Positions 23,957 through 34,123 of a stretch of DNA of 64,000 nucleotides are shown piece after piece. The notes below the pieces were generated by a model. That model did not search any database and was not told the origin of the DNA. It saw only the letters and a program-made list of their open reading frames with translations. This DNA comes from Escherichia phage a48. Location of the stretch: sequence record OQ067375.1. One strand, written 5' to 3'. Every line of letters begins with the position of its first letter. Position 1 is the stretch's first letter. The position numbers and the translations under genes are program-made.

Positions 23957-26900
23957 ATGGCCGAGATTAAAAGAAAGTTCAGAGCAGAAGATGGTCTGGA
24001 CGCAGGTGGCGATAAAATAATCAACGTAGCTTTAGCTGACCGTACCGTAGGAACTGACGGTGTTAACGTTGATTACTTAATTCAAGAAAACACAGTTCAG
24101 CAATATGATCCAACTCGTGGATATTTAAAAGATTTTGTAATCATTTATAATAATCGTTTTTGGGCAGCAACGGATAATATTCCAAAACCTGCTGGAAATT
24201 TTAATAGAATTCGTTGGAAAGCATTACGTACTGATGCCGTATATACAACCGTATCATCTGGACCATATCAATTAAAATCCGGAGAAGCAATTTCAGTAGA
24301 TACATCAGTTGGCAATGACATTGAGTTTACTTTACCACCTTCTCCGCTTGATGGAGAAACCGTAATAATTCAAGATATCGGTGGAAAACCTGGCATAAAT
24401 CAGGTTAAAATAAATTCTTCAAATCAGAGTATTGTCAATTTTAGAGGTGAACAGGTACGTTCAGTTTTAATGACTCATCCAAAGTCACAGATGATATTCA
24501 TTTTTAATAATCGTTTGTGGCAAATGTATGTTGCTGATTATAGCAGAGAAGCTGCGATTGTTACTCCATCGACTGCGTATCAAGCACAATCTAATGATTT
24601 TATCGTACGTAGATTTACTTCTGCTGCACCAATTAATGTTAAACTTCCGAGATTTGCTAATCATGGCGATATTATTAATTTCGTTGATTTAGATAAACTG
24701 AATCCACTTTATCATACAATTGTTACTACATACGATGAAACGACTTCAGTACAAGAAGTTGGAACTCATTCCATTGAAGGCCGTACATCGATTGACGGTT
24801 TCTTGATGTTTGACGATAATGAGAAATTGTGGAGATTGTTTGACGGGGATAGTAAAGCACGTTTACGCATTATAACAACTAATTCAAATATTCGTCCAAA
24901 TGAAGAAGTCATGGTATTTGGTGCGAATAATGGAACAACCCAAACAATTGAGCTTCAGCTTCCGACTGATATTTCTGTTGGTGATACTGTTAAAATTTCC
25001 ATGAATTACATGAGAAAAGGACAAACAGTTAAAATCAAAGCTGCTGGTGAAGATAAAATTGCTTCTTCAGTTCAATTGCTGCAATTCCCAAAACGTTCAG
25101 AATATCCGCCTGAAGCTGAATGGGTAACAGTTCAAGAATTAGTTTTTAATGGTGAAACTAATTATGTACCAGTTTTGCAACTTGCTTATATAGAAGATTC
25201 TGATGGAAAATACTGGGTTGTACAGCAAAACGTTCCAACTGTAGAAAGAGTAGACTCTTTAAATGCTTCTACTAGAGCAAGATTAGGCGTAATTGCTTTA
25301 GCTACACAAGCTCAAGCAAATGCTGATTTAGAAAATTCTCCGCAAAAAGAATTGGCAATTACTCCAGAAACGTTAGCTAATCGTACTGCTACTGAAACTC
25401 GCAGAGGTATTGCAAGAATAGCAACTACTGCTCAAGTAAATCAGAACACCACATTCTCTTTTGCAGATGACCTTATCATCACTCCTAAAAAGCTGAATGA
25501 AAGAACTGCTACAGAAACTCGTAGAGGTGTCGCTGAAATTGCTACGCAGCAGGAAACTAATACAGGTACTGATGATACTACAATCATCACTCCTAAAAAG
25601 CTTCAAGCTCGTCAAGGTTCTGAATCATTATCTGGTATTGTAACTTTTGTATCTACCGCAGGAGCTACTCCAGCTTCTAGTCGTGAATTAAATGGTACGA
25701 ATGTTTATAATAAAAACACTAATAATTTAGTTGTTTCACCTAAAGCTTTGGATCAGTATAAAGCTACTCCAACGCAACAAGGCGCAGTAATTTTAGCAGT
25801 TGAAAGTGAAGTAATTGCTGGACAAAGCCAAGAAGGATGGGCAAATGCGGTTGTAACGCCAGAAACGTTACATAAAAAGACATCAACTGATGCAAGAATT
25901 GGTTTAATTGAAATTGCTACACAAAGTGAAGTTAATACAGGAACTGATTATACTCGTGCAGTCACTCCTAAAACTTTAAATGACCGTAGAGCAACTGAAA
26001 GTTTAAGTGGTATAGCTGAAATTGCTACACAGGTTGAATTCGACGCAGGCGTCGACGATACTCGTATCTCTACACCATTAAAAATTAAAACCAGATTTAA
26101 TAGTACTGATCGTACTTCTGTTGTTGCTCTATCTGGATTAGTTGAATCAGGAACTCTCTGGGACCATTATACCCTTAATATTCTTGAAGCAAATGAGACA
26201 CAGCGTGGTACACTTCGTGTAGCTACACAAGTTGAAGCTGCTGCAGGAACATTAGATAATGTTTTAATAACTCCTAAAAAGCTTTTAGGTACTAAATCTA
26301 CTGAAGCACAGGAAGGTGTCATTAAAGTTGCAACTCAGTCTGAAACTGTGGCTGGAACGTCAGCAAATACTGCTGTATCTCCAAAAAATTTAAAATGGAT
26401 TGTGCAGAGTGAACCTACTTGGGCAGCTACTACTGCAATAAGAGGTTTTGTTAAAACTTCATCTGGTTCAATTACATTCGTTGGTAATGATACGGTAGGT
26501 TCAACACAGCCATTAGAATCATATGAGAAAAATGGTTATGCAGTATCACCATATGAATTAAATCGCGTATTAGCAAATTATTTGCCATTAAAAGCAAAAG
26601 CTGTAGATAGTAATTTATTAGATGGTCTAGATTCGCTCCAGTTCATTCGTAGGGACATTGCACAAACAGTTAATGGTTCACTAACCTTAACCCAACAAAC
26701 GAATCTGAGTGCCCCTCTTGTATCATCTAGTACTGCTACATTCGGTGGATCAGTTTCAGCAAATAGTACATTAACTATTTCTAATACTGGAACGGCAACT
26801 CGTCTGATTTTTGAGAAAGGACCTCAAACTGGAACAAACCCAGCTCAAACGATGACAGTCAGAGTGTGGGGAAATCAATTTAGTGGGGAATCAGACACAA

Positions 26901-27826
26901 CACGTTCTACCGTATTTGAAGTTAGTGATGAAACGTCTAGTCATTTTTATTCTCAGCGTAATAAAGCTGGAAATATAACATTTAATATCAACGGTACAGT
27001 AACACCGATAAATGTTAATGCTTCAGGAACATTGAATGCAAATGGTGTAGCAACATTTGGTAATTCAGTCACTGCAACTGGTGAAATTATTTCTCGAAGC
27101 GCAAATGCTTTCCGTGCTATTAACGGAAATTATGGTTTCATTGTTCGCAATGATGGATCAGTAACGAATTTTATGCTTACTGCATCGGGTGATCAGACTG
27201 GTGGATTTAATGGATTGCGTCCTTTAGCTATTAATAATGCATCTGGCCAAGTAACGATTGGTGAAAGCTTAATCATTGCAAAAGGTGCTACTATAAGTTC
27301 AGGCGGTTTAACTGTTAACTCGAGAATTCGTTCTCAAGGTACTAAAACTTCTGATTTATACACTCGCGCGCCAACATCTGATACAGTAGGATTCTGGTCA
27401 ATTGATATTAACGATTCAGCCACTTATAATCAATTCCCTGGTTATTTTAAAATGGTTGAAAAAACTAATGAAGTGACTGGACTTCCATATTTAGAACGCG
27501 GTGAAGAAGTTAAATCTCCTGGTACATTGACTCAGTTTGGTAACACGCTTGATTCTCTTTACCAAGATTGGATTACTTATCCAACAACTCCAGAAGCGCG
27601 TACCACTCGTTGGACGCGTACATGGCAGAAAACCAAAAACTCTTGGTCAAGTTTTGTTCAGGTATTTGACGGAGGTAACCCTCCTCAACCTTCAGATATA
27701 GGAGCAATCCCATCTGATAATGGAATAATAGGTAATCTTACTATTCGCGATTTCTTGCGAATTGGTAATGTTCGCATTATTCCTGACCCAGTGAATAAAA
27801 CTGTTAAATTTGAATGGATTGAATAA
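23957..27826 (+). CDS. 34: gp34 long tail fibre proximal subunit
   Basis: 1289-aa ORF, first of plus-strand fibre operon; internal ~40-aa repeats. Confidence 0.95.
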   Translation: MAEIKRKFRAEDGLDAGGDKIINVALADRTVGTDGVNVDYLIQENTVQQYDPTRGYLKDFVIIYNNRFWAATDNIPKPAGNFNRIRWKALRTDAVYTTVSSGPYQLKSGEAISVDTSVGNDIEFTLPPSPLDGETVIIQDIGGKPGINQVKINSSNQSIVNFRGEQVRSVLMTHPKSQMIFIFNNRLWQMYVADYSREAAIVTPSTAYQAQSNDFIVRRFTSAAPINVKLPRFANHGDIINFVDLDKLNPLYHTIVTTYDETTSVQEVGTHSIEGRTSIDGFLMFDDNEKLWRLFDGDSKARLRIITTNSNIRPNEEVMVFGANNGTTQTIELQLPTDISVGDTVKISMNYMRKGQTVKIKAAGEDKIASSVQLLQFPKRSEYPPEAEWVTVQELVFNGETNYVPVLQLAYIEDSDGKYWVVQQNVPTVERVDSLNASTRARLGVIALATQAQANADLENSPQKELAITPETLANRTATETRRGIARIATTAQVNQNTTFSFADDLIITPKKLNERTATETRRGVAEIATQQETNTGTDDTTIITPKKLQARQGSESLSGIVTFVSTAGATPASSRELNGTNVYNKNTNNLVVSPKALDQYKATPTQQGAVILAVESEVIAGQSQEGWANAVVTPETLHKKTSTDARIGLIEIATQSEVNTGTDYTRAVTPKTLNDRRATESLSGIAEIATQVEFDAGVDDTRISTPLKIKTRFNSTDRTSVVALSGLVESGTLWDHYTLNILEANETQRGTLRVATQVEAAAGTLDNVLITPKKLLGTKSTEAQEGVIKVATQSETVAGTSANTAVSPKNLKWIVQSEPTWAATTAIRGFVKTSSGSITFVGNDTVGSTQPLESYEKNGYAVSPYELNRVLANYLPLKAKAVDSNLLDGLDSLQFIRRDIAQTVNGSLTLTQQTNLSAPLVSSSTATFGGSVSANSTLTISNTGTATRLIFEKGPQTGTNPAQTMTVRVWGNQFSGESDTTRSTVFEVSDETSSHFYSQRNKAGNITFNINGTVTPINVNASGTLNANGVATFGNSVTATGEIISRSANAFRAINGNYGFIVRNDGSVTNFMLTASGDQTGGFNGLRPLAINNASGQVTIGESLIIAKGATISSGGLTVNSRIRSQGTKTSDLYTRAPTSDTVGFWSIDINDSATYNQFPGYFKMVEKTNEVTGLPYLERGEEVKSPGTLTQFGNTLDSLYQDWITYPTTPEARTTRWTRTWQKTKNSWSSFVQVFDGGNPPQPSDIGAIPSDNGIIGNLTIRDFLRIGNVRIIPDPVNKTVKFEWIE

Positions 27827-27834
27827 GAGGTATT

Positions 27835-28950
27835 ATGGAAAAATTTATGGCAGAGTTTGGACAAGGATATGTCCAAACGCCATTTTTATCGGAAAGCAAT
27901 TCAGTAAGATATAAAATAAGTATAGCGGGTTCTTGCCCGCTTTCTACAGCAGGACCATATGTTAAATTTCAAGATAATCCTGTAGGAAATCAAACATTTA
28001 GTGCAGGTCTTCATTTAAGAGTTTTTGACCCTTCTACGGGAGCATTAGTTGATAGTAAGTCATATGCTTTTTCTGCTTCAAACAATACAACATCTGCCGC
28101 TTTTGTCAGTTTCATGAATTCTTTGTCAAACAATAAACTTGTTGCTATATTAACTAGCGGAAAGGTTAATTTTCCTCCTGAAGTGGTATCTTGGTTAAGG
28201 GGAGCAGGAACTTCAGTTTTTCCATCAGATTCAGTATTGTCAAGATTTGACGTGTCATATGCTGCTTTTTACACTTCTTCTAAAAGAGCTATCGCATTAG
28301 AGCATGTTAAACTAAGTAATAGAAAAAGCACAGATGACTATCAAACTATTTTAGATGTTGTATTTGATAGTTTAGAAGACGTCGGAGCGACAGGATTTCC
28401 AAAAAGAACTTATGAAAGTGTAGAGCAATTCATGTCAGCAGTTGGTGGAACTAATAACGAAATTGCGCGATTGCCAACTTCAGCTGCTATAAGTAAACTT
28501 TCTGACTATAATTTAATTCCTGGTGATGTTCTTTATCTTAAAGCACAGTTATATGCTGATGCTGATTTACTTGATCTTGGAACTACAAACATATCCATTC
28601 GTTTTTATGATGCATCAAATGGATATATTTCCTCTACCCAAGCTGAGTTTACTGGGCAAGCTGGGTCTTGGGAATTAAAAGAAGATTATGTAGTTGTTCC
28701 TGAAAATGCAGTAGGATTTACGATATACACACAGAGAACTGCACAAGCGGGTCAAGGCGGTATGAGAAATTTAAGCTTTTCTGAAGTATCAAGAAATGGC
28801 GGCATTTCAAAACCTGCCGAATTTGGCGTCAATGGTATTCGCGTTAATTATGTCTGTGAATCGGCTTCACCTCCAGATATAATGGTACTTCCTACACAAG
28901 CCTCTTCTAAAACTGGCAAAGTGTTTGGGCAAGAATTTAGAGAAGTTTAA
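27835..28950 (+). CDS. 35: gp35 long tail fibre hinge connector
   Basis: 371-aa ORF immediately downstream of 34. Confidence 0.9.
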   Translation: MEKFMAEFGQGYVQTPFLSESNSVRYKISIAGSCPLSTAGPYVKFQDNPVGNQTFSAGLHLRVFDPSTGALVDSKSYAFSASNNTTSAAFVSFMNSLSNNKLVAILTSGKVNFPPEVVSWLRGAGTSVFPSDSVLSRFDVSYAAFYTSSKRAIALEHVKLSNRKSTDDYQTILDVVFDSLEDVGATGFPKRTYESVEQFMSAVGGTNNEIARLPTSAAISKLSDYNLIPGDVLYLKAQLYADADLLDLGTTNISIRFYDASNGYISSTQAEFTGQAGSWELKEDYVVVPENAVGFTIYTQRTAQAGQGGMRNLSFSEVSRNGGISKPAEFGVNGIRVNYVCESASPPDIMVLPTQASSKTGKVFGQEFREV

Positions 28951-29012: not shown

Positions 29013-29663
29013 ATGGCTGATTTAAAAGTAGGTTCAACTGTTGGTGGATCTGTCATTTGGCATCAAGGAAATTTTCCATTGAATTCAGCCGGTGACGATG
29101 TACTCTACAAATCATTTAAAATATATTCAGAATATAATAAACCACAGGCAGCTGATAACGATTTCGTTTCTAAAGCTAATGGTGGTACTTACGCCGGTCC
29201 AATTACTATTAATTACGGGGTGAATAGTTATCTTCAATTAAGTAATAATGAAACCCCTATCCGAATTCGTTCTGGTGGCGGCACTGGTAATACTCTTGTA
29301 GTTGGCGGCTCTTCCGGTGGTATTAGTTTTAGACCTGCAGGTAGTGAAATCACTACTGGACAAATTACTATTACGCCAGAAGGTTTGACAACATTTACCA
29401 GGGCTGTAACGGCTCCATCGGTAACTGTTACATCTACTCCTTCCGCAGCATCTGATGTTACTCGCAAAGATTATGTTGATGGAGCAATAAATACTGTTAC
29501 AGCAAATGCAAACTCTAGGGTATTACGCTCTGGAGACACTATGACAGGAAATTTAACTGCGCCAAACCTTTTTTCACAGAATCCTGCATCTCAACCTTCA
29601 CACGTTCCACGATTTGACCAAATCGTAATTAAGGATTCTGTTCAAGATTTCGGCTATTATTAA
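29013..29663 (+). CDS. 36: gp36 long tail fibre distal connector
   Basis: 216-aa [26 protein letters not shown]... Confidence 0.9.
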
Positions 29664-29671
29664 GAGGACTT

Positions 29672-32617
29672 ATGGCTACTTTAAAACAAATACAATTTAA
29701 AAGAAGCAAAACTGCAGGTCAACGTCCTGCTGCTTCAGTATTAGCCGAAGGTGAATTGGCTATAAACTTAAAAGATAAAACAATTTTCACAAAAGATGAC
29801 TCAGGTAGTGTTATAGAATTAGGTTTAAAATATGGAGGAACTATAAATGGGTCTTTAGAGGTTACAGAAAATATAACTGGAACTTTAATTGGAAATTCTA
29901 GCACAGCTACTAAATTGCAAACACCTAGGAAAATTAATGGTATATCTTTTGATGGGTCAAAGGACATTACCTTAACTCCATCTGACATAAATGTCAATAG
30001 CAAAACATTTATAAAAAATAATGGCGAATTACCTACTGATGCTAATTTAGATACGTATGGGCCCATTGAAGAATATCTTGGTGTTTGGTCGAAATCTACT
30101 TCAACAAATGCGCAACCAGCAAATAAATTCCCAGAAGAAAATGCCGTAGGTGTACTAGAAGTGTTTGTGGCCGGCCAATTTGCTGGCACTCAGCGTTATA
30201 CTGTAAGATCTGGTAACGTCTATATTCGTTCCTTATCTGCTAAATGGAATGGCGTCGATGGTCCATGGGGTGTGTGGCGTAATGTTCAAGCGTCAACTCG
30301 TCCACTTTCACGAACGATTGACCTTGATAGCTTGGGAGAATTAGAACATTGTGGCTTATGGCGAAACAGTTCAAGCGCAATCGCATCATTTGATCGCCAT
30401 TATCCAGAAGAAGGATCAGCCGCACAAGGATTTTTAGAAATATTTGAAGGTGGTTTATACACGAGAACTCAGCGTTATACTACCCGCATGGGTATGGTTT
30501 ATACTCGTTGTCTCGCTGCTGCATGGGATGCTAGTGCACCTAAGTGGGAGGAATGGAAGCAGGTTGGTCATGGCACACCAGCGACTTTCTATGATGGAGA
30601 TCTGAATGATTTTAAAACTCCCGGGTTATATAATATTTTAGGCACTGATGCCGTTATTAACTGTCCTACAGGTGAAGGTTTGCCGACTGTTATTGTTGGT
30701 TTGCTGGAAGTTAAACAGCGTGCTTCTGGCGGTGCTATTTTCCAACGTTTCACTACCGCAGGAACGGGTGCAACTACTCGCGATCGTATTTTTGAGCGTG
30801 CATATACTGGTGGTGCGTGGGGTGCATGGAACGAAGTATATACATCTTATTCTCTGCCAATTACTTTGGGTATGGGTGGTATTAAAGCTCAATTAGCGGA
30901 GTTAGATTGGCAAACCTTTGATTTTGTCCCTGGTAGTATGTTTAGTGTTCCTTTGAACAAAATAAAGAATATGCCAGCAAATATGGATTGGGGCACGATT
31001 GATGGAAACCTGGTTATGTTTTCCGTTGGTCCTAGCGAACACACTGGCACAGGACGTACTGTTCAGGTTTGGCGCGGTACTGTATCCCAGACAAACTACC
31101 GTTATTTCGTTGTTCGTATCGCTGGTAATCCAGGAAGTAGGACTAATACTTGTCGCCGTGTTGTTCTTGAAGACGGATCACATACTTGGACTGCTCAACA
31201 AAACTTTAGGGGATTGCTGAATATCACTGCTGCTGTTAATCTTGGTGCTAATCAGAAAATTTCACTTGCTCCAGGAGCATATATTCAAGCCCCTGCTAGC
31301 GGTTCTGGTTCTAATACTTACGCAAATCAGAATATTACCATTGCGCCATTATATCAGGCTATTGACGATTCAAATAAAAACCAGTTTGCGCCAATTGTTA
31401 AACAGAAAAATACTGTAAGTAATATCACCTTTGCCACTGGTATGGCTATAGGTACATCCGAATATAAGATCATTGCTCAGGGTGATTTATCCGCTGATGG
31501 AACAGCAGATGGGTTAAAACAGTGGACTTTCATGCCGTCAGGTTATTTTAAATCTCCAGGGCGTGTATATGTCGGTGATGCGTTCCTTAATACAGATGGT
31601 AATATTGCCGGTTCAATCTGGAATAAATATAACAATGCGACAAATTTAGATGCTGCCTTGAATACTCGCGTAGGTAAAGGCGGTGATACGATGACAGGTC
31701 GGTTAACAATCAATGCACCTAATGATTCTATTGTATTATCAACGACTGCTAGTAATTCTTTGCATATTCGTGGTGACATAGACGGGACTGGTAACTGGTA
31801 TATTGGTAAGGGTGGTGCTGATAATTCGCTAGCATTTTATAGCTATGCTTCTCAGGCGGCAGTACATATCACAAACAATGGTGAGATTGCGTTAAACCCG
31901 CAAAATACCGCAATGGTTAACGTTAACCGTGACCGTGTACACATTAACGGTTCTGGATGGATTGCTAGACAACCGGGTGATTGGGTCAACCAATGGCGAG
32001 TAGAAGCTCCATTATTCGTTGATCATGGTTATGTTTCACAGGATTGTTATTATCCTATTCTTAAAGCAAGAAGCGTTATAACCAATCAAGGATATAGCAC
32101 CGCTGTTGACTTTGGTATGCGTCGTATTCCATCACAGTGGGGGCAAGCAATCATTCGTGTCGGATCCACGGAGGCTTCTCCTGATGCTGGACACCCACAA
32201 GCTGTGTTTGAATTCCATCATGATGGATTCTTTTATACACCAGGAAATGGTAGCTTTAGCGATGTGTATATTCGTTCTGACTCCCGTCTCAAGATTAATA
32301 AAGAAGAATTAGAATATGGAGCGGTCGAAAAAGTTTGCCGACTGAAAGTTTATATTTACGATAAAGTTAAGTCTATTAAAGACCGTAGTGTTATTAAACG
32401 TGAAGTTGGTATTATTGCTCAGGACCTTGAAAAGGAATTACCGGAAGCTGTATCTAAAGTTGAAGTTGATGGATCTGATGTTCTGACAATTTCTAACTCT
32501 GCTGTGAATGCTCTTTTAATTAAGGCTATTCAGGAAATGAGTGAAGAAATTAAAGAATTGAAAACGCCTCTCTTTACTAAAATTGCTCGCAAAATTAGTA
32601 AATATTTTAAATTCTAA
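29672..32617 (+). CDS. 37: gp37 long tail fibre distal subunit with C-terminal intramolecular-chaperone-like domain
   Basis: 981-aa ORF; N-terminus conserved with gp34/gp36 type fibres; C-terminal ~110 aa contains SDSRLK motif and coiled-coil tail. Confidence 0.9.
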
Positions 32618-32653
32618 CAACAAGGGGGAAATGCCCCCTTTGGAGTATAAATT

Positions 32654-33436
32654 ATGGCAGTAGTTGGTGTTCCTGGTTGGATTGGAAGTTCAGCCGCAAA
32701 TGAAACAGGACAGCGCTGGATGAGTCAAGCGGCTAGTCAATTAAGATTGGGTGTTCCTTGCTGGATGAGTCAATTTGCAGGTCGCTCACGAGAAATTATT
32801 CACACGCTTGGAGCAGACCATAACTTCAATGGTCAATGGTTCCGAGATAGATGTTTTGAGGCAGGTAGTGCACCTATAGTGTTTAATATTACAGGTGATT
32901 TAGTATCATATTCTAAAGATGTTCCTTTATTCTTCATGTACGGAGATACACCAAATGAATATGTTCAGTTAAATATACATGGCGTAACGATGTATGGACG
33001 TGGCGGTAATGGTGGTAGCAATAGTCCTGGCTCAGCTGGAGGTCATTGTATTCAAAACGATATTGGTGGGAGACTAAGAATTAATAATGGTGGAGCTATT
33101 GCTGGCGGCGGTGGCGGCGGTGGCGGCGGATATTATTCTCCTTTTTCACAAATGAGATTAACCTTTGGCGGTGGTGGTGGGCGTCCGTTTGGTGCACCTG
33201 GCGGATCTATTGATATGCAATCAGGCGCAACTGCTGGTACTATTTCTGCACCTGGCTCAGGATCCGTGAATGGTATCTATAATGGTGGAAACGGTGGTGA
33301 AGTAGGTTCCGCGGGAGGTAGATGCAATATTCGCGGTCAAGGATCTGAATATAATGGCGGCGCTGCTGGTTATGCTGTCATAGGGTCTGCTCCAACGTGG
33401 CAAAATGTTGGAGCAATATATGGTCCAAGAGTATAA
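32654..33436 (+). CDS. 38: gp38 receptor-recognising adhesin (T2-type, glycine-rich motifs)
   Basis: 260-aa ORF with poly-Gly blocks ([38 protein letters not shown]) separating variable segments. Confidence 0.85.
33104..33130 (+). repeat. (GGC/GGT)9 simple-sequence tract encoding Gly9 in gp38
   Basis: ggcggcggtggcggcggtggcggcgga read directly. Confidence 0.8.
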
Positions 33437-33466: not shown

Positions 33467-34123
33467 ATGGCAGCACCTAGAATATCATTTTCGCCCTCTG
33501 ATATTCTGTTTGGTGTTCTAGATCGCTTGTTCAAAGATAACGCTACCGGGAAGGTTCTTGCTTCCCGAGTAGCTGTCGTAATTCTTTTATTTATGATGGC
33601 GATTGTTTGGTATAGGGGAGATAGTTTCTTTGAGTACTATAAGCAATCAAAGTATGAAACATACAGTGAAATTATTGAAAAGGAAAGAAATGCACGCTTT
33701 GAATCTGTCGCCCTGGAACAACTCCAGATAGTTCATATATCATCTGAGGCAGACTTTAGTGCGGTGTATTCTTTCCGCCCTAAAAACTTAAACTATTTTG
33801 TTGATATTATAGCATATGAAGGAAAATTACCTTCAACAATAAGTGAAAAATCACTTGGAGGATATCCTGTTGATAAAACTATGGATGAATATACAGTTCA
33901 TTTAAATGGACGTCATTATTATTCCGACTCAAAATTTGCTTTTTTACCAACTAAAAAGCCTACTCCCGAAATAAACTACATGTACAGTTGTCCATATTTT
34001 AATTTGGATAATATCTATGCTGGAACGATAACCATGTACTGGTATAGAAATGATCATATAAGTAATGACCGCCTTGAATCAATATGTGCTCAGGCGGCCA
34101 GAATATTAGGAAGGGCTAAATAA
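33467..34123 (+). CDS. t: holin T
   Basis: 218-aa ORF with single N-terminal TMD (VAVVILLFMMAIVW) and large periplasmic domain; position after 38. Confidence 0.9.
   Translation: MAAPRISFSPSDILFGVLDRLFKDNATGKVLASRVAVVILLFMMAIVWYRGDSFFEYYKQSKYETYSEIIEKERNARFESVALEQLQIVHISSEADFSAVYSFRPKNLNYFVDIIAYEGKLPSTISEKSLGGYPVDKTMDEYTVHLNGRHYYSDSKFAFLPTKKPTPEINYMYSCPYFNLDNIYAGTITMYWYRNDHISNDRLESICAQAARILGRAK

Follow-up and report, generated by a model that had tools for sequence, protein, structure and literature searches.

The gene 37 locus

The stretch of DNA analysed here (the window) comprises 64,000 nucleotides of Escherichia phage a48 (OQ067375.1) and carries the T-even long tail-fibre block on its + strand. 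According to the open reading frame list, this block encodes gp34 (23957-27826), gp35 (27835-28950) and gp36 (29013-29663), followed in its distal part by gp37 (29672-32617), gp38 (32654-33436) and the holin t (33467-34123). The product of gene 37 matches PHROG 1699, the 'long tail fiber protein distal subunit' (E = 6.5e-204), and PHROG tail-fibre families also align across its C-terminal tail. The features within gene 37 that are needed for the first part of the analysis are the following:

29672..32617, + strand: gene 37, precursor of the long tail fibre distal subunit, 981 aa, 107.0 kDa (open reading frame list)
32276..32614, + strand: whole intramolecular chaperone domain, residues 869-981, 113 aa, 12.9 kDa, pI 8.9, predicted to be released
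32276..32452, + strand: Peptidase_S74 core, residues 869-927 (PF13884 match)

Sequence comparison identifies the phage as a Tequatrovirus that is T6/RB14/PST-like rather than T2-like. The g37-g38 region shares 99% DNA identity with Tequatrovirus LF73P1, ES19, ES21 and the Yersinia PYps phages (PYps15T), and about 96% with PST. At the protein level, a 133-residue query covering gp37 residues 849-981, and thus including the chaperone domain, is 100% identical to RB14 and 98.5% identical to T6.

Residue 869 of gp37 is a serine encoded by TCT at 32276-32278, and translation in frame gives S-D-S-R-L-K for residues 869-874. A prior reading of the letters alone (hereafter the sequence-only reading) had placed SDSRLK at the opening of the last ~110 residues of gp37. 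This is correct, as S869 to the end of the protein makes 113 residues, and the interval 32276-32617 corresponds exactly to this segment plus the stop codon. The short motif itself says little: SD...K occurs in 17% of composition-preserving shuffles of gp37 (SD.RLK in 0.07%), and the gp37 of T2 (AP018813) contains a second, irrelevant copy, SDTGIK at residue 1199, 44 residues upstream of the real start of its S74 domain. The bare SD...K is therefore weak and non-diagnostic; we dropped it as evidence, and the claim must rest on domain-level evidence.

The C-terminus of gp37 is a Peptidase_S74 domain

The S74 domain family was defined for endosialidases, and its first crystal structures were released in 2010. 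The sequence-only reading had noted that SDSRLK resembles the autoproteolysis site of intramolecular chaperones and had suggested a profile search against this family. That search bears the resemblance out: Pfam PF13884 (Peptidase_S74, 'chaperone of endosialidase') matches residues 869-927 with E = 4.4e-11 and 43.3 bits, against a curated gathering score of 22 bits. The alignment spans positions 1-57 of the 58 in the profile, with profile position 1 falling on S869 itself.

A profile built from homologues and run against all PDB sequences retrieved the gp37 of phage S16 (6f45_A, E = 3.5e-24), a putative tail fibre (8jov, 4e-14), the ICA of MyRF (7dc3, 1.3e-8) and the CIMCD of GA-1 (3gud, 0.01). 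The crystal chain of the last of these, the GA-1 neck-appendage chaperone, starts at SDERHK and is thus the released fragment. With the single sequence as query, 6f45_A was a marginal match (E = 5e-4), and the profile version was needed to reach MyRF and GA-1; T5 pb1 and the K1F endosialidase were reached through fold comparison only. An AlphaFold2 monomer model of the domain (pLDDT 85.8) has the intramolecular chaperone (IMC) topology, with an alpha/beta hairpin, a beta-hairpin 'tentacle' and a long C-terminal helix. Segment 869-981 of gp37 thus qualifies as a bona fide C-terminal intramolecular chaperone domain (CIMCD), assigned to S74 in MEROPS and to Peptidase_S74 in Pfam.

The Ser/Lys dyad and the terminal position of the domain are conserved

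A word-indexed homologue search returned 20 mostly fragmentary proteins, too shallow a sample for conservation statistics, and we accordingly scanned 1.84 billion cluster representatives exhaustively with HMMER, which gave 2,921 clusters at E <= 0.001. The conservation alignment was made from the best 150 of these 2,921 clusters, which are diverse homologues. Among these 150, the residue equivalent to S869 is serine in 149, the single exception being a cysteine, and both Asp870 and Lys874 are present in all 150. Further into the domain, G913 and A916 are invariant in the best-homologue alignment and Q917 is retained in 147 of the 151 aligned rows. The junction that precedes the serine is also conserved among the best 150 of 2,921 clusters (D864 in 118, V in 126, Y in 100, I in 113 and R868 in 116). 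The S74 domain ends no more than 15 residues from the C-terminus in 140 of the same 150; in gp37 it lies at the extreme C-terminus and runs up to the stop codon.

Three homologues depart from the common pattern. In P0136 the nucleophile serine is replaced by cysteine (RCDARLK), and this protein may be a Cys-nucleophile variant. P0131 has two tandem S74 domains (SDERFK at 369 and SDKRLK at 473). P0067 is a 1070-aa fibre with a P2-type N-terminus and an internal S74 domain (EVYTR|SDARLK at S746), downstream of which lie, in frame, a T4-gp37-type Collar and a His-rich needle ending in ...NIAFNYIVRLA. If its domain self-cleaves, this puzzling chimera would lose its receptor-binding tip together with the chaperone. 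Neither these oddities nor the basic tail described below change the verdict on gp37.

Prediction of the cleavage site

The residues around the junction, and the part of gp37 that would remain on the fibre, are located as follows:

29672..32275, + strand: predicted mature gp37, residues 1-868, 94.1 kDa, ending in ...SFSDVYIR (cut placed from S16 and from the prediction for fPS phages)
32261..32275, + strand: D864-V-Y-I-R868, final strand of mature gp37, predicted to serve as the docking surface for gp38 when exposed (docking role from PMC7917993)
32276..32278, + strand: codon TCT of S869, predicted nucleophile and first released residue (P1'), from conservation and equivalence to T5 Ser1264
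32291..32293, + strand: codon of K874, predicted to act as general base in the Ser/Lys dyad at a distance of five residues from the serine, from conservation and T5 spacing

S869 is the first residue of the domain and K874 lies five residues downstream, as do Ser1264 and Lys1269 in T5 pb1. In that protein it is the Thr1263-Ser1264 bond that is cut, Lys1269 activates Ser1264, and the serine departs as part of the chaperone fragment, which is also the case in K1F (PMC4690869). Cleavage of the T5 domain occurs on recombinant expression in E. coli and is blocked by the S1264A substitution (PMC4690869). The final 113 residues of S16 gp37 are described as autocleaved between two serines (DLNVS^SDRRIKK), whereby the gp38 docking site is exposed (PMC7917993). 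For the near-identical gp37 proteins of the fPS phages, Salem et al. predicted the cut at DVYIR^SDGRLKI (PMC7917993), a junction that differs from DVYIR|SDSRLK of the window by a single G to S replacement at 871.

Since S16, T5 and K1F are all cut immediately before the conserved serine, the cut is predicted at R868|S869. The sequence-only reading was thus right to locate cleavage at SDSRLK, and needs correcting in that the cut would precede S869, which, judging from these homologues, would leave with the chaperone. By strong inference, gp37 would be split into residues 1-868 (94.1 kDa) and 869-981 (12.9 kDa). Autocatalysis, a chaperone role and cleavage prior to gp38 binding are likewise what the homologues lead one to expect.

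In T5, cleavage is coupled to correct folding of the trimer by Arg1250 of the neighbouring chain and by Asp1239 (PMC4690869). No obvious counterpart of this Arg/Asp 'folding sensor', shared by T5 and K1F, could be mapped by sequence in gp37: position -14, equivalent to T5 Arg1250, is occupied by Tyr855, and the fibre domain ahead of the junction shows no sequence relationship. R868 (P1) and D864 (P5) are the conserved residues near the cut within this fibre class.

Alternative explanations

We consider our whole explanation, in which an S74 chaperone cleaves itself at R868|S869, is released and gives way to gp38 capping, to be very probably right. One other reading takes SDSRLK as a random match at the end of an ordinary fibre protein. 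The frequency of SD...K in shuffled gp37 (17%) and the unrelated second copy in T2 would suit such a coincidence, but the E-values of 4e-11 to Pfam and 3.5e-24 to S16 gp37, together with 2,921 homologous clusters, do not; the Pfam match, the PDB profile search and the fold comparison refute it, and we assign it a negligible probability. In another reading the tail is removed in trans by a host or phage protease, not by Ser869/Lys874 autocatalysis, and its likeness to S74 reflects a chaperone or trimerisation role only. The secondary accounts of the classical T2 work are silent on whether a protease was named (PMC7917993, PMC3157838), and the T5/K1F sensor residues have no counterpart identified by sequence upstream in gp37. 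Invariance of exactly the dyad residues over 150 divergent homologues is nevertheless hard to explain without catalysis, the T5 pb1 domain cleaves itself in recombinant E. coli and ceases to do so when its serine is changed to alanine (PMC4690869), and autocleavage is described for S16 gp37 (PMC7917993). A trans-acting protease is accordingly very unlikely.

Equally improbable, in our estimation, is retention of the S74-like domain on the virion fibre, where it would form a structural part of the tip, with gp38 binding elsewhere or alongside. P0067, in which an internal S74 domain is followed by a further receptor-binding tip, offers a precedent of sorts, so that C-terminal release is not the sole conceivable architecture. 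Against retention in gp37 stand the Ser, Asp and Lys catalytic positions, which are intact and near-absolutely conserved, and the near-identity of the junction with the published predicted site of the fPS phages (PMC7917993). Moreover, T2/T6 gp37 is reported to be cleaved prior to capping (PMC3157838), and S16 gp38 to dock on a surface exposed only after IMC cleavage (PMC6851490, PMC7917993).

The C-terminal helix and a basic extension

Two features occupy the distal part of the chaperone domain:

32495..32566, + strand: C-terminal helix with heptad pattern, residues 942-965 (model helix 94-130)
32567..32614, + strand: 16-residue basic amphipathic extension, residues 966-981, past the usual domain end (alignment gaps)

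The long helix of the AlphaFold2 model corresponds to gp37 residues 942-978 and bears a 3-4 hydrophobic repeat at about 946-963, with N-L-I-M-I-L at the a/d positions. In the T5 pb1 structure, the chaperone forms a central trimeric coiled coil (PMC4690869), and the C-terminal helices of gp37 are expected to do the same. The coiled-coil-like tail proposed from the letters alone thus stands as a helix with a heptad pattern, but not as a separate 'tail', being instead an integral part of the IMC fold.

The sole unusual part of the gp37 chaperone is the extension at 966-981, which is basic and aromatic and has a hydrophobic moment of 0.52. Most homologues lack it: at positions 970-981, between 90 and 141 of the 151 rows in the alignment are gapped, and homologues stop a median of 4 residues past the aligned domain. 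T6 and the window differ at 2 of the 17 positions of 965-981 and nowhere else in the chaperone domain, which suggests weak constraint on this segment. Similar Pro-aromatic-Lys tails occur in a few unrelated S74 members, P0116, P0123 and P0152 (TPWYKKVYRKLFN, KPWWKKILGL). That the tail confers an extra function, on the chaperone trimer after release or on the precursor before cleavage, would be speculative and, in our judgement, very improbable; candidate roles would be transient membrane association in fibre assembly or a signal for fast degradation of the spent chaperone.

The adjoining gp38 adhesin

Directly downstream of gene 37, the window encodes an adhesin with a Gp38_N attachment domain and a glycine-rich specificity domain, as expected for a fibre tip of the T2/T6/S16 type:

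32654..33436, + strand: gene 38, T2/T6-type monomeric adhesin predicted to cap processed gp37 (PF05268, E = 3e-72; PF21721 Gp38_N, E = 1.3e-20)
32654-32779, + strand: gp38 N-terminal attachment domain, aa 1-42, with W9, W22 and W37

In the crystal complex of S16, the interdigitated domain of gp37 receives gp38 at its base, and three gp38 tryptophans insert into pockets on the gp37 end (PMC6851490). W22 and W37 of the window's gp38 align with tryptophans in T6, T2 and S16-like gp38; W9 aligns with a tryptophan in T6 and T2 and with an asparagine in the S16-like protein. The docking surface is reported to be exposed only once the IMC is cleaved off (PMC7917993).

Between the stop of g37 (32617) and the start of g38 (32654) lies a hairpin rich in G+C (32625-32638; GGGGG-AAAT(G)-CCCCC) with A/T on either side, situated just upstream of the g38 Shine-Dalgarno sequence GGAG. 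It was flagged as a terminator on the minus strand only, and we do not consider it a canonical terminator because just three T follow the stem on the + strand. The hairpin may serve in mRNA stability or in translational coupling.

Proposed model of fibre-tip maturation and its implications

By analogy with the homologues, maturation of the fibre tip would proceed as follows. The chaperone domains would bring three nascent gp37 chains into register and trimerise through their C-terminal helices as a coiled coil, so nucleating the folding of the distal, beta-structured end of the fibre. After correct folding of the trimer, K874 would activate the hydroxyl of S869, which would attack the R868-S869 bond in every chain, and the 12.9 kDa fragment 869-981 would dissociate. 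This would uncover a new C-terminal fibre face that ends in ...DVYIR868, on which the helical N-terminal attachment domain of one gp38 would dock via W9, W22 and W37. Given cleavage and gp38 docking, the infectious tip would consist of (gp37 1-868)3 plus one gp38, and not of the encoded 981-residue protein.

The gp38 docking face would thus form only once gp37 is cut. For annotation, virion gp37 would end at R868 rather than at residue 981, and constructs for fibre expression or gp38 swaps must retain the 113-residue chaperone. The self-cleaving chaperone tail of gp37 is already known and is textbook biology for T6-like phages; some GenBank records label homologues 'chaperone of endosialidase' or 'peptidase_S74 domain protein', and the cleavage site of near-identical gp37 proteins has been in print since 2021 (PMC7917993). 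Overall, domain identity, the T2 control described below and the adjoining gp38 adhesin support the cleavable intramolecular-chaperone module put forward in the sequence-only reading, with small corrections.

Comparison with known systems

The gp37 proteins of T2, T6 and the S16-like phage all carry the S74 domain. Along the protein, gp37 of the window is a mosaic with respect to T6: the two proteins are mostly 96-100% identical across residues 1-450 (76% at 51-100), only 12-70% across about 500-800 (about 31169-32071) and 94-100% across 801-981. This pattern suggests that the distal shaft was exchanged by recombination, with the chaperone and the gp38-docking end conserved.

In T2 gp37, PF13884 matches from S1243 (E = 3e-15), with the junction NVYIR|SDIRLK and a 99-residue tail. 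The sequence-only reading had linked its proposal to the processing of T2 gp37, and the same domain and junction are indeed found there; the phage itself, however, is T6/RB14-like and not T2. T2 gp37 differs from that of the window in its length (1341 aa), in an overall identity of about 30% and in a chaperone without the basic tail, and the N-terminal subtype of T2 gp38 is also different. Drexler, Riede and Henning reportedly described the proteolytic processing of T2 gp37 in 1986 (J Mol Biol 191:267). The S74 domain at S1243 provides a molecular explanation for this reported processing. The later account of Trojet et al. has T2/T6 gp37 cleaved and then capped by gp38 (PMC3157838, citing Drexler, Riede and Henning 1986).

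S16 resembles the window in having a distal fibre subunit with the g37-then-g38 order, in the profile match at E = 3.5e-24, in the 113 residues released, in the S-D-x-R-x-K start and in the exposure of a gp38 docking face as a consequence. The structure of S16 gp37 (the 6F45 construct) and its autocleavage are reported to have been described by Dunne et al. in 2018 (summarised in PMC7917993 and PMC6851490). The differences lie in the P5-P1 residues (DLNVS versus DVYIR), in a domain identity of about 30-35% and in the extra 16-residue basic tail of the window's protein. The S16-like Gelderlandvirus CGG4-1 has its S74 domain at S636, with the junction DVYIR|SDRRAK, and shares the DVYIR of the window.

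T4 gp37 presents the reverse domain pattern. Pfam and motif scans found no PF13884 match and no SD...K in it, but Collar and Phage_fiber matches instead; T4 gp37 has its own needle tip, with gp38 acting as a chaperone.

The K1F endosialidase (3GW6), T5 pb1 (4UW8) and GA-1 (3GUD) share with gp37 the dyad with five-residue spacing, the C-terminal position of the domain, the C-terminal helix for a trimeric coiled coil and a cut N-terminal to the serine, the cut in gp37 being predicted. Identity with the window's domain is 9-20%, the beta-hairpin 'tentacles' of the latter are much shorter, and the preceding mature domain is unrelated. In K1F, T5 and GA-1 the matured tip itself binds the receptor or substrate, whereas in the window the cut would make a docking site for a separate adhesin. 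The ICA of MyRF, the myelin regulatory factor (7DC3), belongs to a eukaryotic membrane-bound transcription factor in which cleavage frees a transcription factor, as opposed to the maturation of a fibre in gp37.
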